DNA from: an uncultured Candidatus Peribacteria bacterium
GTDB lineage: Bacteria > Patescibacteriota > Gracilibacteria > BD1-5 > UBA2023
DNA length: 64,000 bases
Assembly (NCBI GenBank): GCA_964540725.1
Contig: CAZINU010000004.1
Coordinates: forward strand, 12,233 to 76,232
Direction: 5' to 3'
Shown: piece by piece, positions 6,122 through 35,478 of the stretch
Layout of the letters: each line of letters starts with the position of its first letter
Position numbering within the stretch: position 1 is the stretch's first letter
Program-made: the position numbers and the translations under genes
The notes under the pieces: generated by a model
What the model was told of the DNA's origin: nothing
Database searches by the model: none
Seen by the model: the letters and a program-made list of their open reading frames with translations, nothing else

Positions 6122-8077
6122 ATGAAGAAAAAACCCGATTCCAAGAAACCGTCCGAATCCCGAGTCAAAAGCCCTCTTGGCGGCATGGGCGTCCGTCCTC
6201 CGAAGATCCGCCGTCCGAACCCGCTCGTTGGGCTCTTTTTGGTCGCGCTTGGCGTTTCCGTGGCGTATTCGTTTTTCGCGTCGCCCGTCCGGGAGGACGT
6301 GAACGACAAGGCCGCCCTCTCCGAAGTCGTTGCCAAATACCATTCGGGCACGTACGAGGAGGTCGTCGTCCAAGGGGCCACGCTCCTTGCCAGGAAGCCC
6401 GCGAAGGAGAGCGTCGTCGGCGATCGGGTCGTGAAAACGGTCGAGGTCGACAAGGTGCTCCTGCCTCCGAACGACGGCCTGACCGATCTCGGGTTCAACG
6501 ACCGTTCGGTCGCGACCAAGGTGACCGTAAAAGAAGATTTTTGGAGCGGTACGATGGGCGAACTCATTCCCACGCTCGTCGCGGCGGTCATCTTCCTCGT
6601 GCTCGCCGTCGTCATTTTTTCGAAATTTTCGCAAGGGGGCGCCAACCCCATGGCCTTCATCAAGTCGCGGGCCCGCGTGTACGACCCCAAGGCGAAGGAC
6701 AAGGTCACGTTCGCCGACGTCGCCGGTTCCGAAGAAGAGAAGGAAGACCTTTCGGAAGTCGTCGATTTCTTGAAGAATCCGAAGAAGTACAAGGATTTGG
6801 GCGCGAAGATTCCCCGTGGCATCCTTATGGCCGGTCCTCCGGGAACGGGAAAAACCCTCCTCGCCCGCGCGGTCGCCGGAGAAGCCGCCGTTCCGTTCTT
6901 TTCGATTTCGGGTTCCGAATTCGTCGAAATGTTCGTCGGCGTGGGCGCCGCCCGCGTGCGCGACTTGTTCCGCGAAGCGAAGGAAAAGGCCCCGTCGATC
7001 ATCTTCATCGACGAAATCGACGCTATCGGCAAGCGCCGCTCTCCCGGAATCGGGGGCGGGCACGACGAGCGCGAGCAGACCCTCAACCAGATTCTGACCG
7101 AAATGGACGGGTTCGACAACGACACGAGCGTCATCGTGCTGGCGGCCACCAACCGGGCCGACGTGCTTGACAAGGCGCTCTTGCGCCCCGGACGCTTCGA
7201 CCGGAAGGTCGTCATCAATCTGCCGAACCTCGAAGACCGCGTGAAGATCCTCGAAGTCCACGCCAAGGGCAAGCCCCTCGACCGCGACGTCGACCTCAAG
7301 CGCGTCGCCTCGAGCACCGTCGGATTCTCGGGCGCCGATTTGGGCAACCTTCTGAACGAAGCCGCCATCCTCGCCGGAAAGCGCTCGTCGAAGACCGTCA
7401 CGGCCGAAATGATTCAGAAGTCCATCGAAAAGGTCGTCATGGGCAATACGAAAAAGTCGCTCCGCATGACCGAATTGGAAAAGAAAATCACCGCCTACCA
7501 CGAAGTCGGGCACGCCATCGTCGGAAAAATGCTGCCCAACGTCGACCCCGTCCACAAGATTTCGATTATCCCGCGCGGAAGCGCCGGCGGCGTTACGTGG
7601 TTTTTGCCCGAGAAAGACCGCACCTACGTCTCGAAAGCCAAGTACTTGGACGAACTCGCCCGCAACTACGGCGGCCGCGCGGCCGAAGAGGTGTTCTTCG
7701 GCGCCGACAACGTCACTACCGGCGCGTCTTCCGATATCGAGCACGCGACCGAAGTGGCCCGCGCCATGGTCATGCGTTACGGATTCGACGAGGAACTCGG
7801 TCCCGAAAACTTCGCTGCGGAACAGGTGGCGGGCAATTACCTCGGCGCCGAAGGTTCCGGGAAGATCGTCTCGGAACGCACGCAGGAAAAGATTGACGAA
7901 AAGGTCCGCGAAATCCTCAAGGGCGCCTATGTCCGCGCTCGCGACATCATTCTGGCGAACCGCGACCTCCACGAAAAGATCGCGATCGACCTTTTGGAAA
8001 AAGAAGAAATGCTCCGCGAGGAATTCGACGCCTACTTCGAAGGCGTCGCAGGGGTTCCGGAGAAGGCGGTGGGGTAG
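6122..8077 (+). CDS. ftsH: ATP-dependent zinc metalloprotease FtsH
   Basis: Walker [12 protein letters not shown]+ second region of homology, zinc motif [11 protein letters not shown] stop. Confidence 0.95.
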
Positions 8078-9632: not shown

Positions 9633-10835
9633 ATGAAACGTTTCGCGCTCTCCGCGATTGTCGGACTCGTCGCCTTCTCGGTTCCGGCCGCATTCGCCGC
9701 GCCGAGCATGGAAGACTACACCTACGTCGACTGCCATAACGGCCAAGACTCCACGGCCGTTCCCTTCGACCATACCAAGCCGTACAGCACGCTCAAGGCG
9801 GCTATCGAGGGCAGCATCAACCATATCAACGCGAATTGGAACATTCCCGCCAACGCCCAAGCGGTGCTTTCGAAGCGGTTCGTCATCAAGGCGAAAGCGC
9901 TCTGCGTGTTCGACGGGTACGGGGCGAACGGAATCCGGCTGAATTTTTGAAACGGAAACGTGTATCACAATGATCTTTTCATTACTTCCGACGATACCGC
10001 AAAACCGTTCTGAATCCGTGGATACTATTTTTACGATTCCCAGATTGACGGGTACGCGAATCCTCGTTGAATAACCTTTGACTCGACGTATTTCATGGGA
10101 AGTTCCGCGGCGGCCGGAAATTCGTATTTCCGAATAAATTCGAACGGAATCGGCATTTCGAATAGCGTCATTACGATGGGGTCATCGCCCATGTTCCAAC
10201 AGCAGACTTGGAAATACCCCTACTGCAACGTTTCTTGGTGCGCGTACGCCCCGAATCCCGCGAATGCGAAAATCTCCAACTCCCTCATCCGCATTACCGG
10301 AAACCAGAATGCCGACACGAACTTCCTCATGCCGGGTTCCATCGAGAATTCGAAAATCGAGTTTACCGTTCCGAACGGGGCGAACGGAAAACTCATTCTG
10401 AATGCCGACGGAAGCAATTTCCTCAACCTCATCAAATCCACCCGCTTCGACCTGGGAGGCAAGAACGTCCACGTGAACGTCGACGTCGTAAACAGCCAAT
10501 TCACGAACTTCGGCACCTTTACGGCCGCCGGAGGTTGGAACGTCTTCACGAACAACACCGTGCTCCAAATGCCCGGGCTCCTTACGGTGAACAATTGGTA
10601 CTACGCGTACAACAACGTCTTCGCGCCGTACGGGATTGCCGATTCGTCCGACCCGAACAACGAGCGGCGGAACCTCCAGACGCCCGCGCAGACCGGCGGC
10701 GTTGGGTGGAGGTACCGCAAGGCCCTCGGCACCTACCTCGAGCAGAATTTCACCGACGCCACCCTCCGCAACGAAGCCGCGCCCGGAAGCGCTTCCGGCG
10801 AAACGTTCACGCCGACGTACCCGATCTTCCAATAG
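9633..10835 (+). CDS. Secreted protein with beta-helix-like repeats
   Basis: ORFs 9633..9950 and 10095..10835 are in one frame, joined through TGA at 9948, 10011 and 10068. Signal peptide MKRFALSAIVGLVAFSVPAAFA. Recurring xNSxI motifs (ISNSVIT, ISNSLIR, IENSKIE). TAG stop. Confidence 0.65.
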
Positions 10836-10855: not shown

Positions 10856-13800
10856 GTGCTTCCGACTCGGATTTTTCGACCGACGAAAGCCTTTCTGGCC
10901 GCCTTCTTGGCGATGGGATTCCTTTCGGTGAGCGTCGTTTCCGCCAACCCGGCGGTGTGAGGCCGCGCAGCTTGGAACGAATGGGACGGAAGCAGCCGTT
11001 CGGTCGTGCTGGATATCGACGCCCAGAAACGGACGGATTTGTCACTCCCTCCGGATTCGTACGTCGTTGCTATTTTCCGTGACGAAGGCATCGTGTACCA
11101 ACGGTGGGATGCCGGAACGTCCATGTCCGTATGCATATACAGGGATTCGGCTACGGGCGCCGAACGGACGCTTTTTTCGGACGGATGGCTGTCGTCGTTC
11201 GATCCCGAAACCGGAAACTACACGTATTCCGTATGGGGCGACGGCATGAGTCGCACGTACCGCGCAAACGTTGAAACGGACGTCGCGCCCACTCTCGTGC
11301 TCGCGGAGCCGAATGCATGAATCCAACAGTATTCCTCCGATCTCTCCCATGCGCTTATAAATCGGTACGATCCATTGACTGGATCGAACTCCATATATCT
11401 CAGGAACCTCGCTACCGGCTCGGAACGGCTCCTCGGTCCCTCGTATTCCGATTCGCCCGAATACTATTGGAACGCTTTCTTCGCCTTCTTCGGCGGATCG
11501 AACGACACCGTTGTCCGCATCGCTCGGGAATATCGAAAAAGCGACTGGACGCTCTCAGCACACTCGGGCGCCATTCTCGACGCGACGGATCCTTCGGCCA
11601 TTTCCGAGAGTCCGGCACCCATGAATTTCGGCCCCTACGGGTACTATGTCGGGTATAAGGGGAATCGGCATTTCTATGTCGTTTATGACGAAAATTGGAA
11701 CTCTTCCACCCATACCTATTCTGACGGCACCGACTCGGTCGTATTGGATGTGGGGAAATACCTCATGTCCGATTGACAAACCGGCCGTATGCCATGATAC
11801 GGCGATATTGTCGCCTACTCGTACTGGGATTCCGCATCGTCGAAAAACGTCGTGGAATGGATGAACGTCGCCACTTCGGCTACGGGTTCGATCGTTGACG
11901 GATGGGTGGACTCCAAAGCCCTCTCCCTCCGCCCTTGGAAAGACCCGTACGACCCCCTCGTCTTCTCGAACCCCATCGGGTGGTATTCGCCGCAGGCGTC
12001 GAATCCGGACGGAACGGCGTTCGAAAACGTCGCGTATTCGGGCGTGCTCGGAACCGCTCTCGCGGCCGAATCGATTCCCTCGTGGACGGGCGGCGTATTC
12101 GAATCGGGTGCCGGCCCCATGGGCGCGTACGCCACCATGGCCGCGGTTCCCGAATGGGCCGCTACGGCGTTCTCGTTCGAGGGTGGCAGCATCGGCTCGT
12201 ACGGATTCCGGGCCGAGTGGCTTCCGGCGTTCGCCTCCGAGGGATTCGCGTCCGCCGGTACGCTCGTAGGATCGTTTGGGATTCCTTCGGCATCGTGGCC
12301 GGAGTTCGGCTCCGGAACGTTCCTCGCGGAAGTTTCGGCCCCGGTGGGAAGCTTTGGCGCGCCGCTTTCGAGCGTTCCCCACTGGTCGGAATACCAATTC
12401 TCCCGCCTCGCCTCCCAAACCCCCGCCTCCGCCGCGCCGTTCTCCGGCACCGGCGGCGAATCCGTCCTCGCCGCCCGCGACGGCAACGGCGACGTCCTCG
12501 CCGAGGCCCAGGCGCCGGACAAGGACCTCATGGACCCCGTCGACCCCGCCACCGGCGACTTCCTGTACGAAAACGCCTTCCTCCGGCTCGCCGGAGGCCG
12601 CGAACCCTTCGAATTCTCGCTCTCGTACCGCTCCTCCGCCGGGTACGACGGCGCCTCCGGCCATGACTGGATCCACCCGTTCGAGCGCAAAATCCTCCCC
12701 GCCGCCGACGGTTCCGCCAAATACTCCGACGGCGAGGGCGGAACCTGGACCTTCGCCGCCTCCGGCACCGGGTACGCCCGGTCGGAAGCGCTGAAGGCCG
12801 GGCTCTCCCGCACCGGCTCCGGCGGGTGGCTCCTCTCGATGCGGAACGGCCGGACGGAAACGTTCGACCCCGACGGCCTCCTCGAAACCGTCGCCGACCC
12901 CGACGGCGTCCTCTTCTCGCTTTCGCGCGACCGGTACGGCAACCTCGCCTCCGTCGCGGATTCCCTGGGGCGCGTCGTCCGCTTCGAGAACGGCCAGGAC
13001 GGCCGCGTCGCGAAGGTTTCCGACCCCCTCGGCCGCGAAGTCCGGCTCTCGTACGCCTCGCAAACCGGCGCGGCGGCGACGCCCGGCGACCTCGTCTCGG
13101 TCTCCCTGTGGTACGGCACGGGCGCCGAAAAAACCGTCTCCTTCGGGTACGGCACGGGCGCGCACGACCTCCACAAGATCGTTTCGCTCACCGATTCCAA
13201 GGGGCAGGAATACGTAACCAACGGGTACGGCGCCGACGGCCGCGTCGCCTGGCAGCGGTACGGAGAAGGCACGGGGTTCTACTCGTACGTCCTTTGAAGC
13301 GTCCACGAAGACGATACGCCCGAATCCGCCGGCACCGGCCCCGTCGTCGGCGCGTACGTGGAAAAAACCGTCGTCACCGACCGCCGCGGCAACGTGACCG
13401 AATACGCGTATTCCCGCGCCGGCGCCCCGCTTTCGCGCACCGAACTCGGGTACGGCTCCGGAACCCTCGCCACGTCGTGGGCGTACGGCGCCGACGGCCG
13501 CGTCGCCTCGGAAACCCGGCCCGACGGAAGTTCGACCCTGTATTCGTACGACCGAGACGGCAACGTCTCCGAAGAGCGCCTCCGTTCGTCCGACCCCGCC
13601 GACGCCGACGTCGTCGTCCGGTACGGATGGGATTCCGAAGGCCGCCTCGCGGAAAAAACCGCCCCCGACGGTTCCCGGACGCTCTACTCGTACGACGCTT
13701 CCGGCCGCCCGACGTCGGTGGTCGCGGCCGCCGTCCGCCTCTCCGCGACCGGTTCCGCCGACCTCGGAACTTCCTTTTCGTACTCCGGCGGCTACCTCTC

Positions 13801-16800
13801 CGCGAAAACCCTCCCGGACGGCTCGCGGACGGAGTATTCGTACTCCGGCGGACTGCTCGCGGAAGTTACGGATTCCCTCGGAACCCTCCGCTACGCGTAC
13901 GACGCCGCCGGCAACCCGACGGCGGTCACGGACGCGGAAGGGAACGTTACCCGCTCCGAATTCGACGCCTTCGGCCGCGTCGTGAAAACCGTTTCCCCGG
14001 AAGGCCTCGAAACCCGCTACTCGTACGACGCCAACGACAACCGGATACGGACCGAACGCTCCGCCGGCCCCGGAAAAACGGCCGCGACCCGCGCGGCGTT
14101 CGGCCTGCTCGACGAAGTCCTGTCGGAGGAATCCGACCTTTCGGAAACCCTCACGGGCGCCCTCGAGACGCGGTACGACGCCAACGGGGAAGTCGCCGAA
14201 CGCCTCCTCCCGTCCGGCGTCCGCGAGAAGTTCCTCCGCGACCCCGCCGGCCGCGTCACCGAACGCCGCCTCGTCCCCGCCGACGCCTCGGAAGACGCCG
14301 TCGCCCGGTACTCGTATTCCGGCGGCCTCCTGGCGGAAGAAACCGACCCCCTCGGCCGGAAAACGGAATACCGGTACGACGGCTTCGGCCGGCTTTCTGC
14401 GGAAATCTCGCCCCTCGGCACCGAAACCCGGTACTCGTACGGGCCCTCCGGCAAACCCGTCCGCACCGACGTCCTCGACGCTTCCGGCGCCCTCGTCGCC
14501 CGATCGGAATCCGAATACGGTTCCGGCGGCCTCCTCCTCGTCGTCCGGTCCGCGGCGGTGGAAAACGGCGCCCCGGCCGGGGGAGCCCTCGAAACCCGTT
14601 ATTCGTACGGCCCCCTCGGAAGGAAAACGGAAGAAACCGCCCCGGGAGGGGGCAAGACCCGCTACGCGTACTCCGGAAGCCTCCTCGCTTCCGTCACGGA
14701 CGCGACGTGAAACCGCGCGGAATACCGGTACGACAAACGCGGCCTCGTTACCGAAACCCTTACCGTCTGAACCGACGGCACGGTCCTCGCCACCCGCCAC
14801 GCGTACGACCGCGACGGCCGCAAGACGGAGGAAACCGCCCCGGACGGCGGAATTACCCGGTACGGATACGGCCCCCTCGGCGACCTCGCCTCCGTCACCG
14901 GCCCCGAAGGAAACCGCACCGAATTCCTCCGCGACTTCCGCGGCCTCGCCACGGCCGAAACCGACGCCCTGGGCGGAACCGTTTCCGCCGGGTACCGCGC
15001 GGACGGCAACCGCGTTTCCCTCTCGGACGCGGAAGGAAAAACGACTGCGTACGCCTTCGACGGCTTCGGAAGGGAAAAAACCGAAACCCTCCCGGACGGC
15101 TCGGAGTACCGAACCCGGTACGACCTCGCGGGCAACGCCGTGGAAACCGAGGACCCGGCCGGCAACCGCGTGACCCTGGAATACGACGCGGAAAACCGCC
15201 TCGTCCGCAGAACCGCCCGAACCGCTTCCGGAACCGTCGGACCCGCGTGGGAAAGTTTCTCGTACGGCCCGCTCGGCGAACTGCTCGAAGCGCGGGATTC
15301 GGACGGCAACGCCGTGGCGTTCTCGTACGACGGGTTCGGAAGGAAGGAGGCTGAAACCCAAAACGGGAAAACCGTCTCGTACGCGTACGGAAACGACGGG
15401 CGGATTTCCTCCGAAACCCTCCCGTCCGGAAGGGTCCTGGATTACGCCCGGGACGCCCTCGGGCGCCCGACGGGCATGGCGGAAGGTTCCGGCCAATCCG
15501 CCCGGACCCTCGCCCAATACCAGTATTCCGGCCCCTTCCCGTCCGGAACCCTCCTCGGCAACGGGACGGCCGAATCGCGCCTGTACCAAAACGGAAGGCC
15601 CGCCGCCCTCGCGCTCTCCGTGCCCGGAAGCCAGGCCCCCCTCCGCGCGTACTCGTACGCGTACGACCGGAATTCCAACCCCCTCTCCGACGGGGAGGGC
15701 GGGTACGCGTACGACGCCCTCTCCCGCCTCTCGTCCGCCGGATACGGGACGGAATCGGAATCCTTCGCGTACGACCGCGCGGGCAACCGGACCGTCCGGA
15801 CGTCCACGGGAACGGAAACCGGAACCGCGGACTACGCGCGGAACCCGCTCGACCAGTACCCGGAAATCGCCCGAACCCTCTCCGGAGGAACCCAGACCGG
15901 CTCGTACCGCTTCGACCCCAACGGAAACCTCGTCGAAACCGACCGGCTCGTCCTCGAGTACGACTGGCATAGCCGCCTGAGGAAGGTTACGGAGAAGGAA
16001 TGGACCGAAACGGGAAGCCTCGGGCCGCGAATCCCGGAGGCGTATTTCCTGGGATCGGAGACGGGGAGCGGTTCGGAAACGGGCACGGGAACCGGCACCG
16101 GAAGCGGCGCCGAACCCCCGCCGGATTCCGGCAGCGGCAGCGGCACGGGAACCGGGGAAACTTCGACCGGGACGGTCCTTCCCCCCGATACCGGAACGTG
16201 AGCCGGAACGTGAACGTGAACGGAAACCGGGTCGGGCTCCGAAACTTGAACGTGAACGGCGGAAACCGGGACGTGAGCCTGAACCGGAAGCGGGGCGGAG
16301 ATCCCGCCGGAAACGGGCGCCGGTACGCAATCCAGCACCTGAACCGGAACGGGCGGAACCTCGTCCGGGACCGGGGAAACCTCGTCGGGAAGCTTTTCCG
16401 GCACCGGAACCTTCTCCATCTTCCACCCCGCCCGAATCCTCGCCGAATACGCGTACGACCCGCTCGGCCGCAGGATTTCCAAAACCACCGAGAATGCCGT
16501 CACCAAATGGCGCTACTCCGGTGAAAAAATCGTCCAAGAGACGGTCGAGACCCCCGTCGGACAACTCCTCCGTACCTCCGAATTCGCGTACGGCCCCGAC
16601 GGGGACGACGTCGTCGCCGAGTTCCGTACGGAGAACGGGAATCCCGAGGAAACCCGCTACTTCCTCAAGGACCGCCTCTGAAGTACCGTCGCGGTCACCG
16701 ACGGCTCCGGAAGCGTGCTCGAAGAATACCGCTACGACCCCTTCGGCAAGACGTACCGGAAAACCGCGGAAGGAACGTGGGAAGCCCTGAAGCCCGGACG

Positions 16801-17554
16801 GCAGACCGCCACCGACCGGCTCTACACCGGCCGCGAACGCGATCCCGAAACCGGCCTCTACCATTACCGCGCCCGGACGTACTCCCCGGAACTTTGAAGG
16901 TTCCTGCAGAGGGATCCGGTAGGCACCGCGGACCAATTGAACCGGTACGCGTACGTGGGGAACAACCCGATGGTGGCGACGGACCCGAGCGGGATGGTCA
17001 TCAAGCAGATGGTCAGGGGCGGCGTCGAAGGCGACTTCGTCGAGAATCCCACCGTATGGAACGACGTCGGCAACGCCGCCGTCGGGTTCGTCCCGGTCGC
17101 CGGCAACGCCGCCGGAATCCGCGATTCGGCCGCCGGGCTTTCCCGCTGCGAATGATTCGGGGACTGCGCCCTCGCCGCCGGCGACACGGCCCTCAACCTC
17201 GTCCCCGGGAAGAAGGGGGCGCAGGGGGTTTGGAAGTTGGGCCGAAGGGCATCACCCATCGTAAAGGAACAAATCCATCATTTCCTTACGAATAAAAGTA
17301 AAAGATTTACTCCCGAATTTGTAAAAATCGTATCAAAATACGATTTAAAATTAGATGAATCTTGGAATAAAGGGGCAATGGAGCATTTATGACGACACGT
17401 CGAGGATTATCACACCATGATGCTTTATCAGGTTAGGCGCATAGACGCCGTTGCTCGAGGATCTCAAAAAATATTCTTAAAAGAATTTGAGGCAATCAAG
17501 AAAAGCGTTATGGATAATCCAGATATACTTTATAAGAAGGGATGGTGACGCTAG
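10856..17554 (+). CDS. RHS/YD-repeat polymorphic toxin (WapA-like, Sec signal peptide)
   Basis: A single frame runs from 10856 to TAG 17552-17554 with no TAA/TAG and 20 in-frame TGA. Putative GTG start gives the signal peptide LPTRIFRPTKAFLAAFLAMGFLSVSVVSA. Many YD repeats (xxGxxxxYxYDxxGR). Core end is YFLKDRL-G-STVAVTDGSG...YHYRARTYSPEL-G-RFLQRDP...NRYAYVGNNPMVATDPSGM. The start codon is uncertain. Confidence 0.85.
16052..16412 (+). repeat. (Thr/Ser-Gly)n low-complexity linker inside the RHS gene, UGA-dense
   Basis: Translates as ETGSGSETGTGTGTGSG...TGTGAGTGTGTETGSGSETGTGT.... Eight Gly codons in 16199-16342 are TGA, partly as acgtga hexamer repeats. Confidence 0.8.
16646..17080 (+). repeat. 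Direct repeat copy 1 (RHS core end)
   Basis: 435 bp colinear with 18183-18617 (offset 1537, no indels seen, roughly 85-90% identity by eye). Confidence 0.85.
17081..17554 (+). other. Variable C-terminal tip of the RHS protein: PT-TG-like segment followed by an xHH-type HNH/EndoVII-like nuclease candidate
   Basis: VGFVPVAGNAAGIRDSAAG resembles the pre-toxin TG module. After it comes ...IHHFLTNK...SWNKGAMEHL-G-RHVEDYH (HH...N...H..H). GC drops sharply from about 17256. Confidence 0.5.
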
Positions 17555-17585
17555 CCTATTATACTTGTAATGCATAACTGACATC

Positions 17586-18170
17586 ATGACGTTCTTTTCT
17601 TTTGTACAAATGGATCCTCCTAAAAATTCGGGAGCGATGCTCCCGAAGGATCATAAAGTCTTCCAAGATTTTTGATGGGGCGAATACGATCTTGTTTGCG
17701 GAAAAAAGATTGAAAACTGGAATGATAGAAATGTTGCATTTTTTGAGCGAGATGGAGAAAAATCTAATTTATCTGAAGATTATTTGGGTACCACGTTACC
17801 TTGTCCTGTGATTTCTCGAAAATTTAAGGAATTACTCGAGAGGGAAAGAATTGAAAACATTCAATTCTTTCCAATTCGTATCGAAAATTTTAATAACCCT
17901 TCCGATATTTTCGAAGCCGAATATTTCATCGTGAATATCCTTGACGTTGTCGTCGGTGCTATTGACAAAAAAAAATCTATTTCTGACTGAATCGGGTGAT
18001 TTTTGAAAAAAACCCTTATTGAAAAAAAAATCAGCGGACACGATTGGTTTAGATTGTTCGAAGACCCTTTTCAGGACATTATTTCCGAACGAATAAAAAG
18101 ACTGTTCGAAGATAACTGTTCAGCATACGTTAAATTCTCTCGTATTATGGTCGTGGAACATTGAGATTAA
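17586..18170 (+). CDS. Imm11 (DUF1629)-like immunity protein
   Basis: 194 codons in one frame with TGA at 17673, 17988, 17997 and 18162, TAA stop. Motifs PVISRKFKELLERERIENIQFFPIRIEN...EYFIVNILD and ...WFRLFEDPFQDIISERIKRLFED match the Imm11 pattern as I recall it. Low GC. Starts 31 nt after the toxin stop. Confidence 0.7.
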
Positions 18171-18182
18171 TTTTAGATCCTT

Positions 18183-18617
18183 GAAGAAACCCGCTACTTC
18201 CTCAAGGACCGCCTATGAAGCGTCGTCGCCGTGACTGACGGAACCGGGAACGTCGTCGAAGAGTACCGCTACGACCCCCTCGGCAAGACGTACCGGAAAA
18301 CCGCGGAAGGGGCGTGGGAAGTTCTCAAACCGGGACAACGAGCCGCCACCGACCGGCTCTACACGGGAAGGGAACGCGACGCGGAGACGGGACTCTACCA
18401 TTACCGCGCCCGGACGTATTCCCCGGAACTCGGAAGGTTCCTGCAACGCGACCCAATAGGCACCGCGGACCAGATTAACCGGTACGCGTACGTCGGGAAC
18501 AACCCGATGGTGGCGACGGATCCGAGCGGGATGGTTATCAAACAGATGGTCAGGGGCGGCGTCGAAGGCGACTTCGTCGAGAACCCCGCCGTATGGAACG
18601 ACGTCGGCAACGCCGCC
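18183..18617 (+). repeat. Direct repeat copy 2 (RHS core end)
   Basis: Colinear with 16646-17080. Confidence 0.85.
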
Positions 18618-18660
18618 ATGACGGAAGGGAACGGTCCGTCCTTGAAGGACATCGCCCACA

Positions 18661-18693
18661 AAACCCCCTCCGAATCGGTTCGGAGGGGGTTTT
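18661..18693. terminator. Bidirectional intrinsic terminator
   Basis: aaaccccctccgaa-tcgg-ttcggagggggttt perfect hairpin between the orphan fragment and the convergent gene. Confidence 0.6.
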
Positions 18694-18704
18694 CAATATT
18701 CTTT

Positions 18705-19436
18705 CTACATCTTCATCCACCCGTTCGCAACGGCCATGATGCCGTTCAAAACTAAGAGGATGCCGAGCGCTTTGAAAAGTTCCTTGTCGTTCATTCGATG
18801 ATGGACGACGTTTCCGACCTTCAACCCCAGCAGTAACCCCGTGAATCCGGCCAATGCTTGAAGCAGTATGCCGGGAACGACGATGCCAGCGAGCAGGAAA
18901 GTGATCATCCGGATGTTTCCCTGGATCATGAAGATGAGGGAGAGCGTTCCGCGAATCTGGCTCTTATTCAGTTCCCGATTCGACAAGTAGATGACGTACG
19001 GGGGTCCGCCGGTTCCGAAAGCGCCGCTGATGGCCCCGCCGGCGAATCCGGCGACCGGAGCCCATTTCGGGCTGAGGGTCTTGACGACCTTCCAACCGAG
19101 AACGTGCTGCAATCCGAAGGCGGCGATGACGACGCCCACCATGATGAGCAATGCGGATTGCGGCAGTTTCACGAGGAGGAAAATGCCGATGGGCAAGCCG
19201 AGCAAACTTCCGAGAATCAGGGACTTGAATTCCGGCCAGACGATATCCGTTTTTCCTATCCGACTGAGGATGATATTGGCCAGTGCTTCCAGCAGGAGCA
19301 TGAGAATGACGACCTGGTGGAAGGGGAGGTAAATGGCCAACAATGGGGTAGCTATGAGCGAAGAACCGAATCCGGTCGCGGCCCGAATGAAGAAACAGAC
19401 GAACGCGATGAGTCCGGTAGCGAGTAATTGTTCCAT
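18705..19436 (-). CDS. TauE/SafE (DUF81) family anion exporter
   Basis: 243-aa polytopic membrane protein with a duplicated GxGGG-type pattern (RAATGFGSS..., GAFGTGGPP). TAG stop. Confidence 0.8.
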   Translation of the reverse strand: MEQLLATGLIAFVCFFIRAATGFGSSLIATPLLAIYLPFHQVVILMLLLEALANIILSRIGKTDIVWPEFKSLILGSLLGLPIGIFLLVKLPQSALLIMVGVVIAAFGLQHVLGWKVVKTLSPKWAPVAGFAGGAISGAFGTGGPPYVIYLSNRELNKSQIRGTLSLIFMIQGNIRMITFLLAGIVVPGILLQALAGFTGLLLGLKVGNVVHHRMNDKELFKALGILLVLNGIMAVANGWMKM

Positions 19437-19799
19437 ACGCCATTAGCAGCCACTCACCTCCCAAGCGTCATTCGCTGGGAGCGTCTCGGTGACGAATCTT
19501 GCGACTCGCTCCCTGAGCCTTTCGTTTCCTCTCGGTCTTTCGTCCGCCGACGTCGGTCTTCCGAGGGCTTCCGGTTTTCTTCCGCTCGGATCCGGGAGAT
19601 GTCTCGGAAACTGTCCTTCGTATGTCGTCATATCGTGTGCGTCCATACTCTGAAAAAGGAAAAAAATAAATGCATTTAACAAATGCATACGTAGTATAAA
19701 CCAAATGGCAATAAGAATCCAAACGTTTTGTTTTTTCTTCTGTTTTTCCGTTTTTTTCTTCCCGTTGGAACGTATCGTCCCGGGCGTAACCCCGTGATT

Positions 19800-21938
19800 A
19801 TGCGCCTCTTCGGCTTTTCCTCGCTCCCGAACGTTCGCCTTCCCGTCGCGGCGTCCGTTCTCGCGGCGTCCGCCATGCCCGCTTCCGCGGCGTTTTTCTT
19901 TTCCGAAGCGCTGCCGAACACGGCCGACGACGCGCTCCTCGAATACGTAGTCGTCGCTTCCGATTCGTGCGTGCCCGAAAGCCTTTCCGGATACGCGCTT
20001 TCCGACGCCTCCGGAAAATCGTTCACGTTCGGCCCCGGCGACGCGTTCGTTTCGACCGGAACCTTGAAAATTGGCCGGAACGTCACGAAAATCACGCTCA
20101 ATAACGAGAACGAATCGCTCTTCCTTCGAAACCCGGCATGAATCCTCGTCGATACGTTTTCGTACGCTACGAGCGTGAAAGGGGCGCCGATTTTCCGGGT
20201 TCCCGAAATTCCGTATCCGGCGTGCTTTCCGACGGAAAGCTTTGGCGTACCGGAAAATTCCGGCCAGTCGGACGGTTCGGAAGATTCGCCGACGCCGGAC
20301 GAAACGCTGTCCGAACCGGAGGTCGTGCCCGAAGAAGGCGCGTCCGTTCCCGGGGAAGGGGGAGCCGAAGAATCGGCCGATTCTTCCAGCAGTACCGATT
20401 CCGATGGGACCGGCGAATCCGAAGCGTCGGAAGATCCGGAATCCGAAACGGGGGCGACCGTGCCGGATTCTTCGGAGACCGACCCCGGAACGCCCGCTCT
20501 TCTATCTTCCGCTCCCTCCGAAGACCCTCTCGGATCTTTCGAGAATTCGACCGGGAGCGTTTCGCCGGAGGCGTTGTCGTGAGCGTCGTACGCCGAAGGG
20601 GAGTCGCTCTCCGCCGTACCTTCCCTCCGGACCGAAGGCGTTTCGGATATCCGGGCGACTCCCGAATTCCTTGCCGTCGTCGATTCCGATAGCGACGGAC
20701 GGTTCGATCGGTTGGACATAGCGTATTCCGAATCCGTCACGGGAACCGTAACCCTCTCGGGCATCTTTCTTTTTTCGGCGACCGGCGGACTCTTCGAATC
20801 CAAGGTCGCGACCGCGACCGGGTTTTTCCGGTCGGCGTCGGCGTCCGGTTCGGTGCTCTCCCTTTCGCTCTCGGGCCCGACGCTCGCGAAACCGTCGCTT
20901 CGCGTCGATGCGTCCACGTCGAGCGAACTCCGGCTGAAATCCACTGCCGACTTCTGACTCCGAACGCTTGCCTCCGGCCTTCCGGTCGCCCCCTTCGCGC
21001 TGACGACCTCGTTCGATGCGTATTCGAAAGACCGGGTATCGTTCGTTCCGCCGCCCCCGCCGCCCCCGGCAAGGGTGGAATACGTGGCCGTTCCGTCCGG
21101 CACTTCCTCGACAATCCCTTCCGTCACCTCGTCGGAACCGGCGTCCGCAAACATTTCGAAGGCGTCGAAGCCCCCGAAGGCGTCGAAAACGGCCGCGCTC
21201 GGCAAGGCGAAAGTTCCGGCGAAAAATTCGGCAAAAGCCCCGTCGGTCGGCGGCCCGAAACCCCCGAAACCCGCGCCGACGGAAAAATCGGCCGCCCCAC
21301 CCAAGGTGGCGGAAGGCGTCGCCGTCGTTCCTTCCCAGGGCGTCGACCTTCTTCCGGACGGCACGTACCGCTACGAGTGCTTCTCGAAAACGTCGTGCCC
21401 GGTTTCGCTGAAAGTCGAAAACGCCCCGAAGGGCGGATACTGGCAGTTCTCCGACGGGCGCAAGCGTTTCGGCAATTCGACCGGAACCCTCGGGAAAGGC
21501 TTCGCCACCTACCGGCTCCGCTACGTGGCGCCCTCTTCCGGGCGGGATACGGAAATCCCCGTCCTTCTCTCGGTCGTTCCGGCAGCGGAAGCGACTGCGG
21601 AAAACGTCTCTTCCCAAGCGAAGGCGGTTTCGAAGGCCCTTGCGGCATCCAAGAGTTCCGCCACGTCGTCCGGGACGAAAAAGACGTCCTCCGGTACGGC
21701 GTCGAAAACGTCGAAACTTCCGTCGTCCGAATCCAAGGAACTCTCGGGCTCGGGCGCCTGAGCGGCGGTCGGTTCGAAAAAGTCGCCGACCCTCCGTCCG
21801 CCCGGGGTCGAACCGTCCCGCGATTCGTTCGCGCTCGCCCTTATCGCGGTTTCGCTCGTTTCCCTCGGGCTTCTCGCCGGCGGATGGATCGGTTCGAGAC
21901 TCTTTCCGATTCCGGGCGAGCCGGTCGAGCGCGCCTAA
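19800..21938 (+). CDS. Lamin-tail-domain (LTD) surface protein with an acidic low-complexity region and a C-terminal TM anchor
   Basis: Four ORF fragments in one frame, joined by TGA at 20139, 20580, 20955 and 21759. Signal peptide, then the LTD pattern FSEALPNTADDALLEYVVV...LSGYALSD...LNNENESLFLRNPA-G-ILVDTFSY. C-terminal FALALIAVSLVSLGLLAGGWIG. TAA stop. Confidence 0.75.
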
Positions 21939-31633: not shown

Positions 31634-34327
31634 TTAGGGGGCGGAAGGAACGGGAGCGTCGTATTCGACGCCGTTCACGATAATCTTTTTTCGTGAAAAA
31701 TCGAGCGTCACCGATTTTGCGGAGGAAAGTCCTTGCCGCATAATGGCCGATTCGACGTAGTCTCCGACCGACGCCATGATCGAAGGGAGGGCCGCGAGCG
31801 GAATCCTTTTCGGAACGATTTCAACGGAAACCGGAAATCGTTCCGTTGTTTCTTCGGAGTCGTACACCCGAATCGAAAGGGCGTAGAATTCGTGGGTTTG
31901 GAATACGTATTTTCCTGAAAACACGCCGAGATAGGCATTGCCGTTCGTGGAAGACAAGGGCTTCTTAACGCCGTTCAACGTAATGTCGTACGCGCCGGAA
32001 GCGGTTTTGGCGGTAACGTTGGCAATCGAAATCGGAAGCGCGTCGGCAACGTTCTTGAAGTCCTTTCGAATGAGTTCGCGGTCAACGAACAGAAGCATGC
32101 TCGAATCCATGGCGGGGACGGTTTTTTCTTCCTCGTTTCCTTGATCGGAAGTAACGGTGGCGTCCGTGACGGCGACCGCTTTGCTTCCGTCGAGATACGT
32201 GTTGACGAAGAAATTTTCAAAGAGGTACAGCGTCCGACGCGGATCGGTTGCGTCGATATCCGCAATCTTTTCGTCGAGCGAAGCTTTTTTGTCATCCAAT
32301 ACGACCGTCGTCCCCTTAAAACGCTCGTCTTTCTTCGTTCCATCGGTGATGACAAGCGAGTCTATGAGGTTCCCCTGGTCTGGAAAGAGTCGGAATTCGA
32401 AGGTTTTTCCGAGAATCGGAACCCGGACTGCGTAAAATCAGTCTGTAGTCGGATCGTTCATGACCTTCATCCCCGCCGCGTCGACGCCCTTGAATAAGGC
32501 GAGGTACGAACGGATGTCCTCCTCGGTCTTCATTTTCTCGGTAAATTCGATTCCGGAAAGGTTTCGGAAGTCTTCCGAAAGATCGAGTTTTTGTCGGTAT
32601 TCCGGGTAGTTTTGGATGGTTTCGAGCTGTTTTCGGACAGGGCCGAGAGAGCGTTCCAAGAGGTCGTAAGCATTGAGTTGTCCACCTCCGGTCGGCCCCC
32701 GGAACGTTTCCAGATATTTTTTCTTCTGAGCCTCGAATCCGGGTCCGGAGAACGTTTTTACGAGCGTTTCGAGCGATTTTTCGAATCCATCGGGCAGGTT
32801 CGGGGTCGTCTCGCCAACCAAATATTCCGGTCTCAAGACGGTCCCGATCTCGGTTTTCTCGAAGAACGTCTTGGAAATTCCGCTTCCGATTTGCCCGAAG
32901 ATTTTCGCGTAGACGTCGGAATACAGGAACGAGAGGATGGATTGCCGGGCGGCATCGTCTTTTAAAAGGGCATAATAGTCGTTCGAAACGTTCGTCAGGT
33001 TCGCGGCGATTCGAATTCCCGGCACCGTCATTTCGGAGCCTTCGCGCCGAAGGTATTCTTTTAGGAAGAACGAGAATGGGAGGAATTCGGAGGTTCGGAT
33101 CGATTTCGACCGGACCATCGCGGACATATATGAATCGAGCGAGTTTTCCAGTCGGGAAGCATCCCAATTTCCGAAATAATATGCGCCGTACATGGCCGAA
33201 AGGAGGGCGTAGTCGCCGTTTTCGATTTTAATCGACGGAAACGCTTTCGTCGCGACGGTCGTAAAGACGTCGGACGTGCGTCCGGAAACGAAGTAGGCGT
33301 CCGTTTCGCCGACCGTTCGGAACGACGAGAGGTAATACGCCGTTCGGACAAGCTCCCGCCCTTCGGTTCCGAGTGACGGACGGACGCCCTCCATTCGGTC
33401 CAACGTTTGGATAATTCGGTCCAACGTTTCTTTTCCGGAAGGGCATCCTTTGGTCTTTTTCGAATCGCACCCCTCTGAAAGGGCCAGGTCCCGAAGTGCC
33501 CGGATAAGTTTCGCTTTCAGGAGCGAGGCCTGTTTTTCGGGATTGACGAAGTACCATCCGAATTCTTCCGCGAAGTCGGGTTCCGGAACGGTTTCGGAGA
33601 GCTTGAGGAACTTCGCGTACGCTTCGGAGAAGCGGTCGGCCGAAGTCTTTCCGAACCGGAGATTTTTATCGAAGAAATCCCGTGCCTCGGTTCCCGTTCC
33701 GAAGAGCATATCGGATCACGAATCGTGGCGGGGATCGACATAGCGGAGGGTGTTCAATTGACTTACCCGAAGAACGTCGGCTCCCGCGATTCGATCGTTG
33801 TACCGGGGAGAGTATCCGAAATACGTGGAAGGGAAAATCGCGACCTCCGCAATCGGTTTTTTCCTGAGAAGCAATTCTTGGCTCAACAAGGCTGAGACCG
33901 AGAATATGCGGATTTCTTCCGGATTCGTCGTGTCGACGTAGAAGGCCCCCCGTCCGATTTGTGAAATTCGGAACGATTCGTGCGTTACGGAATACCGGTC
34001 GAAGATGTCCGACAGGTGAAAAAAATAGATTCCGCGCCCGATCCGGATCGTCTTTCCCGAAGACGTTCCGGTAATCGCTGGAGGCGTTTTTCCGAGATAG
34101 GAAACGCCCGAAATCGGAGAGAGGCGCAGATATCCGCCCGAAGACGTCGCGCCGCTTACGGAAGTTTCGTTCGGAGGGAACGGAAGAATCGAGACGCCCA
34201 AGGAAAGGTCGACCCCGGGGGTTTCGACGACGAGGCGGGCGGATTCCGATTTCGATCCTCCGACGGAAGCGGCGAAGAAGACCGCCGCGAAGACGATGAC
34301 CGAAAGAAAAAAGAGGAAGCGCTTCAT
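31634..34327 (-). CDS. Large secreted/anchored protein of unknown function (897 aa)
   Basis: Three ORFs (33716..34327, 32438..33709, 31634..32299) share one frame and are joined by TGA at 33716-33718 and 32438-32440. N-terminal MKRFLFFLSVIVFAAVFFAASVGG. TAA stop. Confidence 0.7.
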
Positions 34328-34353
34328 ATGGAGGAAAACGAAGGGAAAAACCG

Positions 34354-35478
34354 TTACCGATTATACCCCGAACGCCCGCCCGGAACAAATTCTTCCCACT
34401 TGCAATCCGTCCGGAGCGTGGTTTCGTAGGTCCGAACGGATCCGGCATCGGTTCGGACCGTGCCGATTTCCCGATTCCGATCGATTGAGTTTTGCGTAAA
34501 ATTCAAGCTTCCGACCCAGAGGCGCCGACCGTCCGCAAGTACCGCTTTCGCATGGAGCGCCGGTCAGGAAGAAGTCGTTACGGCCGCGGCGTTTCCGAGT
34601 TCCGACCGTATCTCGGGCACGTCTGATTTTTCCCGAAGGCAGACCGAAACCCTGATTCCGCCCCGGATTTTTTCCCGAAGAATCCGAAGCGTTTCGGCAT
34701 CCGAAAGGGAAGGTGCCAGAATTTCGAGACGCTCCGTCGCGTCCGAGAGGAATCCCCGGAGCTTTTCCCGCGCGTCGGAATCCGCCAGGTACGCCCGGTT
34801 CGGAACGGGTCCACGGTACGGGATTCCGGCGAAATCGGCCTCGAATACGGATCGGAGGAATCCCGCCATCTCCGGATCGTTTCCGAAAACGAAAAATTCC
34901 CGGTTCTTCGAAAAGCTCGTTTTCGCGTAGTTGGCGGTGGAAAACGAGTACGACCGCCCGTCGGCGACCAGGTATTTCGCATGGAAGTACGCGAAGGGGT
35001 CGTCCTTCGGGGCCCGCACATCCGCTCCGGCCGCGAGGAGCCGGTCCCGGGATTTTCGGTTGGCGTTCGGAATTCCGTAAACGTCCCGTTCGACGATCCC
35101 GCGAACCGACACCCCCCGTTTCGCGGCTTCCGAGAGGGCGCTTACGACGTCCGTGTCCGAAAGGACGTAGACGGTGAAAACGATTTCGCGTTCCGCGGAA
35201 TCCACGAGGCCGAGGAACCGCGCCTTCGGTTCGGGTCCCGGTCCGGCGAGGAAATCTTCCGAAATCTCCGTTTCGGCCCCCGTCCCCGAAAGCGCCGCGC
35301 CGGCCTTGTCCGGAAGGTTCGCCCGCACGTCCGGCCGCGTGGGGGATACGGTGCGAACGGATTCCCGGTATTCGGCGTACCGGGTTCCGAACGGGGTGAG
35401 CGCGAACGCGAACGCGAGCGTTCCCGAAACGAGCGCGAACGCGAACGCGCGGGGAAGAAAGTGTCGGGGAATCCGCAT
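34354..35478 (-). CDS. Phospholipase D-superfamily protein with two HKD motifs
   Basis: First HKD is FHAKYLVADG...STAN. TGA 34564-34566 read as Gly adds a second HKD, LHAKAVLADGRRLWVGSLNF. TAA stop at 34354-34356. Confidence 0.85.

Follow-up and report, generated by a model that had tools for sequence, protein, structure and literature searches.

The Rhs locus and its two core ends

We consider an Rhs (YD-repeat) polymorphic toxin locus in a 64,000-nucleotide stretch of contig CAZINU010000004.1 (assembly GCA_964540725.1, deposited as an uncultured Candidatus Peribacteria bacterium); this whole stretch is called the window below. A main Rhs gene ends here in a predicted nuclease tip and is followed by a predicted immunity gene, after which the end of the Rhs core occurs a second time, as an orphan copy in front of a terminator and a convergent membrane protein gene. 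The locus is of a canonical, published type, in which an Rhs toxin and its immunity gene are accompanied by the remnant of an orphan core end. A preliminary description, made from the letters of the window, had pointed to the two core ends as direct repeats that bracket a toxin cassette, and its interpretation is essentially right. The features of the locus, with their positions in the window and their strands, are:

10856-17554, plus strand: main Rhs toxin gene, about 2,230 codons, recognized by its Pfam domains and open only with TGA as a sense codon
16055-16405, plus strand: Thr/Ser-Gly low-complexity linker within the Rhs shell, seen in the translation
16646-17080, plus strand: direct repeat copy 1, the end of the main Rhs core, with TGA at 16679 and 16895 (alignment, TIGR03696)
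17081-17255, plus strand: GC-rich linker present in the main copy only, with one TGA at 17153 (composition; no family match)
17256-17551, plus strand: AHH-family (HNH/EndoVII) nuclease toxin domain (PF14412, 31.4 bits, cutoff 22.3)
17586-18170, plus strand: Imm11-family immunity gene, 194 codons, ending with the TAA at 18168-18170 (PF07791, 39.4 bits, cutoff 22.1)
18183-18617, plus strand: direct repeat copy 2, the orphan Rhs core end, with TGA at 18216 and GGA at 18432 (alignment, TIGR03696)
18618-18659, plus strand: sequence unique to the orphan, 42 nt from the repeat to the terminator, with no toxin domain
18660-18693, no strand assigned: intrinsic terminator with 15 perfect stem pairs (fold prediction)
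18705-19436, minus strand: TauE/SafE-family membrane protein gene, convergent, bounding the rhs locus on the right (PF01925; also present in Logan contig L001)

When TGA is taken as a sense codon, the frame of the main gene is open from 10166 to the TAG at 17552-17554, and these 7.4 kb hold 20 in-frame TGAs and no TAA or TAG. The start is inferred to be the GTG at 10856, from the signal-peptide-like N-terminus (MLPTRIFRPTKAFLAAFLAMGFLSVSVVSANP) that a protein begun there would have. PF05593 (RHS_repeat) matches the translation in 14 stretches (E 2.9e-93, 305 bits), together with DUF6531 and the C-terminal AHH domain. The sequence marks of an Rhs/YD-repeat polymorphic toxin are all found: the YD/RHS repeats, the core domain with its motif, a variable C-terminal toxin domain and an adjacent immunity gene. 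The linker that follows the core has a GC content of 72% over 17081-17239. By eye this piece had given the impression of a pre-toxin TG domain, which we dropped when Pfam gave no match even at E<=10.

The two core ends align over 435 nt as direct repeats (16646-17080 and 18183-18617), colinear and ungapped at an offset of 1537, with 379 identical positions (87.1%). The preliminary description had estimated 85-90% identity by eye, at the same offset and with no indels, and the alignment bears it out. Outside the edges of the repeat the identity of the two copies drops to background on either side; a repeat finder alone recovered the first 300 nt, at 83% identity. Against all other 435-nt stretches of the window, on both strands, copy 1 scores a mean of 115 matches (standard deviation 13) and at next best 170, compared with the 379 of copy 2. 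These are the only two Rhs core ends in the window (tblastn, code 25), and as proteins they are 90% identical. TIGR03696 (Rhs_assc_core, NCBIfam) is matched in full by each, over positions 1-76 of 76, with 93.7 and 90.5 bits at a cutoff of 32.5, so that the earlier assignment of both segments to the Rhs core end stands. The core motif NNPMVATDPSGM is found in both copies; the TIGR03696 domain ends there, at DPSGM (of the PxxxxDPxG(L/M) type), and the repeat runs 29 residues beyond it to its ends at 17080 and 18617.

How have the two copies come to differ? They are separated by 56 nucleotide differences, of which 38 fall at third, 13 at first and 5 at second codon positions, and of the 48 codons that differ 34 are synonymous and 14 are replacements. 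A pairwise alignment with rates of change, which the preliminary description had proposed as a check, gives a synonymous divergence (dS) of 0.49, a replacement divergence (dN) of 0.057 and a dN/dS of 0.115, which argues that the copies diverged as working, selected coding sequence before they came together, and are not a recent local duplicate. The longest exact run common to the two is 41 nt. The differences are spread unevenly: the 3' 135 nt (16946-17080 and 18483-18617) are 95.6% identical with 6 differences, and the 5' 300 nt are 83.3% identical with 50. The corresponding dS is 0.19 in the 3' part and 0.66 in the 5' part (Fisher p 0.013 for the synonymous differences and 3e-4 for all nucleotide differences). 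The high likeness of this 3' third of the repeat, which includes the 29 residues after DPSGM, may come from gene conversion or from added constraint at the start of the released toxin fragment.

The orphan begins abruptly. Directly 5' of it lies an in-frame TAG (18174-18176), the boundary has no start codon, and the first in-frame start is the GTG at 18231. Its reading frame is unbroken throughout the repeat and continues for 45 codons to a TAA, in agreement with the earlier statement that about 45 residues and no immunity gene follow the shared segment; we find no immunity-like open reading frame (ORF) downstream of the orphan, and no Pfam match or toxin domain in its tail. Only 42 nt of unique sequence precede the terminator, and what is left of the 45-codon tail coincides with the 3' end of TauE, which is convergent, so that the tail is mere read-through and does not code. 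The terminator hairpin has a predicted energy of -26.2 kcal/mol (z = -5.7; matched by 0 of 200 shuffles). It is flanked by an A-tract and, on the opposite side, by a T-tract, and it stands where it could serve the rhs operon as well as TauE, which converges on it. The preliminary description had judged the old tip degraded; this was an understatement, since no old tip is present. With its place behind the main gene, its homology to that gene and its lack of initiation signals, the orphan is a core-end fragment in the sense of PMC3967940. By its sequence it is a core-end remnant and not a full orphan rhs-CT module, as it has neither a toxin domain nor an immunity gene of its own.

The host and its reading of UGA

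The window organism is, by its BipA, a Gracilibacterium. This protein is 94-95% identical to that of two metagenome-assembled genomes, JANJWP01, which is titled Ca. Gracilibacteria, and JASDUA01, which is titled Patescibacteria group; its identity to that of many other Ca. Gracilibacteria genomes of this kind is about 80%. The GC content of the window is 0.59, compared with 0.59 and 0.56 in its nearest relatives (54-59% over L003, L015 and L010) and 0.35-0.45 in most of the other Gracilibacteria loci that were fetched.

That this organism reads UGA as Gly, according to genetic code 25, is well supported. In both copies of the core end the codon within DRL-x-S is TGA (16679-16681 and 18216-18218), and the homologs have G there in 63 of the 70 aligned sequences (from 75 Rhs homologs). 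Within PEL-x-RF the codon is TGA in copy 1 (16895-16897) and GGA in copy 2 (18432-18434), and G is found in 72 of the 75 Rhs homologs. The four codon positions of the preliminary description (TGA at 16679, 18216 and 16895, GGA at 18432) are thereby confirmed. Its conclusion that UGA means Gly also holds, through the conserved Gly positions, the 20 TGAs and the taxon; its claim that the TGA/GGA site is an internal proof goes too far, as this is one site among 48 differing codons and is suggestive. A TGA in the Fmt gene aligns to G in 3 of 3 solved Fmt structures, in an alignment that extends past the TGA. In the Rhs gene of a related contig (L002; JGI 3300045730, 54% GC) there are 32 in-frame TGAs, the tip region is AT-rich, and a Thr/Ser-Gly linker of the same kind occurs, in which TGA and GGN alternate between the main and orphan copies of that contig. 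When the main and orphan copies and the L002 ortholog are aligned, TGA stands mostly opposite G or TGA, and Trp at no aligned position. All the called ORFs of the window stop at TAA or TAG, and in none could an in-frame TGA close to the end act as the stop.

The window has a single tRNA, Arg-CCT. What it has in common with the genomes nearest to it, L003 and L015, is just the region of BipA together with some 1 kb upstream, and a codon check there is thin and mixed: the TGAs of the relatives stand opposite G in 4 cases and S in 1, and those of the window opposite A, S, R, A and G. A TGA in TrmD, one residue out of register by eye, was not used as evidence.

We have also weighed the possibility that the in-frame TGAs are real stops in a decayed pseudogene, or that they encode Trp (code 4) or selenocysteine, and find it scarcely credible. 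The public call of the Imm11 ORF did use code 4, with W at all four of its TGAs (P0108), and a TGA in the CNNM transporter gene aligns to Ser in an archaeal structure, a position that the analysis treats as uninformative. Against these stand the 20 TGAs in a 7.4-kb Rhs frame that has no TAA or TAG, with its domains in order up to an intact AHH, and the alignments, in which TGA stands opposite G at conserved sites and never opposite W. Moreover, the linker at 16055-16405 contains eight of the 20 Rhs TGAs, all of them at the Gly of its (T/S)G repeat and often as ACG-TGA pairs. The lineage, finally, is that of the Gracilibacteria, in which code 25 is established (PMC6851277, PMC8629427) and UGA=Gly was confirmed by proteomics, according to a passage of PMC6851277 that cites Hanke et al. 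2014 (PMC4032931).

The code found here is a known one rediscovered, not a new one. As in the Gracilibacteria and Absconditabacteria for which it was described (PMC4032931, PMC6851277, PMC8629427), in-frame TGA falls at conserved glycines. The window differs from the code-25 clades, whose GC content is 0.21-0.53 (PMC8629427), in its GC of about 59%, and it takes UGA=Gly usage up to that value. It differs as well in that ten conserved host genes use TGA rarely (3 of 360 Gly codons) and the cassette often (6 of 18).

The AHH tip and the Imm11 gene

The tip of the main gene resembles a known family of nuclease toxins. A full HMMER scan with a TGA-free 78-aa piece of the tip as the query gives 289 AHH relatives. 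In an alignment of 25 AHH homologs the residues H24, H25, N29, K30, W53, N54 and H60 are invariant, and the window tip keeps all of them; it also keeps R63, H64, Y68 and H69, of which H64 and H69 are near-invariant in the homologs. The TGA at 17390 falls on a Gly that is invariant in the homologs (25 of 25, the 'GRH' position). The Imm11 ORF begins 31 nt past the rhs stop and contains four in-frame TGAs. Among 5.8 billion sequences we found no relative of it other than the same gene, on a record translated under code 4. The predicted Imm11 protein should shield the producer from the predicted AHH nuclease toxin. Compared with known AHH/Imm11 modules (PF14412, PF07791), the window tip keeps the HH dyad and the downstream N, H and H, and the adjacent ORF scores above the Imm11 threshold; the window differs in the first residue of the AHH motif, which is Ile and not Ala (IHH), in the invariant Gly that is encoded by UGA, and in the Imm11 protein with no detectable relative but itself.

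The composition of this module sets it apart from its surroundings. GC falls from 68% in the Rhs core, and 64% and 63% in the two repeat copies, to 38% in the AHH domain and 35% in the Imm11 gene, and the GC at third codon positions of the two is 0.34-0.36 (AHH 0.36). TGA makes up 6 of the 18 Gly codons of AHH and Imm11, 17 of the 270 of the Rhs core and 3 of the 360 of the ten conserved host genes. A GC of 35-38% in a setting of 59-68%, the TGA share of 6 in 18 and the one TGA at an invariant Gly would together point to an AT-rich donor that used code 25. With some reservation, we therefore hold it possible, though short of likely, that the AHH/Imm11 module was brought in from a bacterium of low GC in which UGA is likewise Gly. 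Alternatively, the TGAs may have been gained after import, or selection may keep tips AT-rich as in other Rhs systems. If the low-GC, code-25 donor is real, then the code-25 bacteria would have a pool of Rhs cassettes to themselves, closed off from other bacteria by the code, and bacteria of this kind from the Candidate Phyla Radiation (CPR) would turn Rhs toxins on one another. A cassette that encodes a third of its glycines by TGA, and with it a small hint of cassette transfer between code-25 bacteria of very different GC, is the one point here that is mildly new.

Nuclease-like motifs are seen, by motif alone, in both tips of the related contig L002. Its main tip (about 6200-6600) reads 'K-TGA-HHPHAQS', a putative GHH nuclease signature only if TGA is Gly, and its orphan tip (9700-9920) reads 'HEVHHSIP', which may be HNH/AHH-like.

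A probable displacement at the core end and its alternatives

We turn to the history of this arrangement, for which the enterobacterial rhs loci can serve as a template. In Salmonella Typhimurium LT2 (STM0291/STM0292) the main gene and the orphan share 522 bp at 95% identity, and the orphan has no initiation signals (Koskiniemi et al. 2014, PMC3967940). The two loci are alike in that a full Rhs gene with tip and immunity gene is followed by a core-end fragment (435 bp at 87% in the window), in the missing translation initiation signals of that fragment, and in the shared segment as a substrate for homologous recombination. They differ in that the LT2 orphan comes with a functional toxin domain and an immunity gene of its own, while the window orphan has neither and only 42 nt before its terminator; the window also differs in its host, a CPR bacterium, in the signal-peptide-like N-terminus of its Rhs protein and in code 25. 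Among the window ORFs scanned, no secretion-system genes were identified. The model of C-terminal displacement, in which tips on core fragments insert via a circular intermediate, is that of Jackson et al. (2009, PMC2935791), who also describe a GC-rich core with an AT-rich tip as the classic Rhs composition. The window shares with their model the GC-rich core, the AT-rich tip, the dissociated core-end fragment downstream and the expected direct repeats. The model was built on Enterobacteriaceae, and the window departs from it in a composition break 175 nt inside the unique region and in the missing displaced tip.

Under such a model, a piece of DNA with a core-end fragment, a new tip and an immunity gene would enter the resident rhs gene by recombination at the conserved end of the core. 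If this went by one crossover from a circular intermediate, as has been suggested for the rhs loci of enterobacteria, exactly the layout seen here would result: the cassette that came in would be flanked by the two core ends as direct repeats, and the former tip would afterwards have been lost, or would never have been present. Very probably, then, the main Rhs gene, the cassette and the orphan core end have arisen by C-terminal displacement. The preliminary description had proposed the same, and its layout, with direct repeats around the cassette, agrees with both published accounts (PMC2935791, PMC3967940); the event itself is one that we infer from that layout.

Several observations weigh against this history or limit it. 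No ancestral or variant locus was found in the collections searched, so that the displacement is not directly observed. A metagenome scan with the 145-aa core end gave 179 relatives, the best of them 55-64% identical over part of the query, with no strain variants among them, and in none does the stretch after DPSGM occur. A search with the orphan protein returned the window's own fragment as the sole match above 63% identity, and a synteny search via TauE, where the best relative is 45% identical, gave no comparable locus. The orphan, unlike textbook orphans, has no toxin/immunity module, and there is no silent reserve of toxin; the 'old tip' is assumed. Codon usage does not separate a resident from an incoming copy, with copy 1 having the preferred codon at 18-20 of the 34 synonymous differences. 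The closer likeness of the 3' 135 nt is not predicted by the simple displacement model, and later gene conversion may be one cause of it. Lastly, the break in composition, at about 17255, does not coincide with the edge of the repeat (17080/17081), so that one event does not account for everything, and the AT-rich module probably joined the GC-rich core end and its linker in an earlier one.

Which other histories could give the same locus? A local tandem duplication of the core end in this genome, with divergence afterwards and no imported cassette, would fit two copies that are alike in GC (0.64 and 0.63) and in host-like codon usage. However, a dS of 0.49 and a dN/dS of 0.115 demand long purifying selection on both copies, and yet the orphan has no start and no tip; the intervening DNA is foreign in composition (35-38% against 63-68% GC, and TGA at 6 of 18 against 3 of 360 Gly codons). 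The L002 contig has the same layout, with an orphan of 2.2 kb that is 83% identical to its own main core and has a different tip, and this fits an exchange of cassettes. We regard the duplication as unlikely. It is also conceivable, and in our view very unlikely, that the orphan is a working part of the locus, either translated from the GTG at 18231 or preserved as a site of recombination that deletes tip and immunity gene together, an off-switch for the toxin. Its frame is intact over the repeat with few replacement changes (dN/dS 0.115), and the 95.6% identity of the 3' 135 nt could mean ongoing gene conversion. The low dN/dS may, however, date entirely from divergence at a time when the copies were still apart; the boundary has no start, and translation would yield a piece of the core that lacks a toxin. 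A cell that had undergone the deletion would, for its part, be without immunity and be killed by its siblings, and no variant contigs turned up in the database look-ups and the metagenome scan.

The duplication could, in addition, be an artefact of assembly, in which two strain alleles of a single rhs end were joined serially; the window does come from a metagenome assembly, and repeats and strain mixtures produce chimeras. We compared it with an independent assembly, the Logan contigs of SRR5011273, although both assemblies may draw on the same sample. Contig L083 is 100% identical to window positions 17017-18309 and contig L001 to 18554-20250, and together they cross three junctions, from copy 1 to the tip, from the immunity gene to copy 2, and from copy 2 to TauE. 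The contig ends that lie inside the repeats (17017, 18309 and 18554) each coincide with the first or last 31-mer that has a copy-distinguishing base, beside shared runs of 41 nt and 31 nt. With both copies present, a graph at k=31 would be broken at shared runs of at least 31 nt, and the contig ends match this. Since the copies differ at 13% of their bases and their longest exact match is 41 nt, the two are unlikely to have been collapsed or joined as a chimera; a run of that length is shorter than a read, and a chimera would require a join within unique sequence. The preliminary description had named such an artefact, to be seen in read mapping, as what would overturn it, and with the three junctions crossed at 100% identity we consider an artefact most improbable.

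Loss of the cassette through the repeats, which the preliminary description had raised, is plausible. The main-plus-orphan layout of Rhs loci, and the GC-rich core with its AT-rich tip, extend to the Gracilibacteria, for which this locus is a clean worked example; in the literature searched we found no paper on rhs loci in this candidate phylum, save a passing mention of a TccC-like protein. In public protein sets the locus is mistranslated. The Imm11 ORF appears there translated with code 4, with four Trp in place of Gly, on a 1,293-nt Logan contig (P0108), and the Rhs gene is present just as code-11 fragments, such as a 174-aa piece (P0001). In exact look-ups of further code-11 fragments, the orphan (18231-18755) and a piece of Imm11 (17784-17990) were not on record. 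With genes split under code 11 and translated under code 4, toxin surveys that are built on such gene calls will therefore miss or misread code-25 Rhs loci.

Three other genes of the window can be added. The best protein-database match of the TauE/SafE gene is 45% identical and its organism-named matches are proteobacterial, so that the gene may be a foreign acquisition. The ORF at 31634-34360 (minus strand) has 909 codons with in-frame TGAs and no Pfam match. The ORF at 19695-21938 (plus strand) is rich in Ser, Pro and Thr and has in-frame TGAs, a C-terminal hydrophobic stretch and a weak, sub-cutoff match to a lamin-tail domain.

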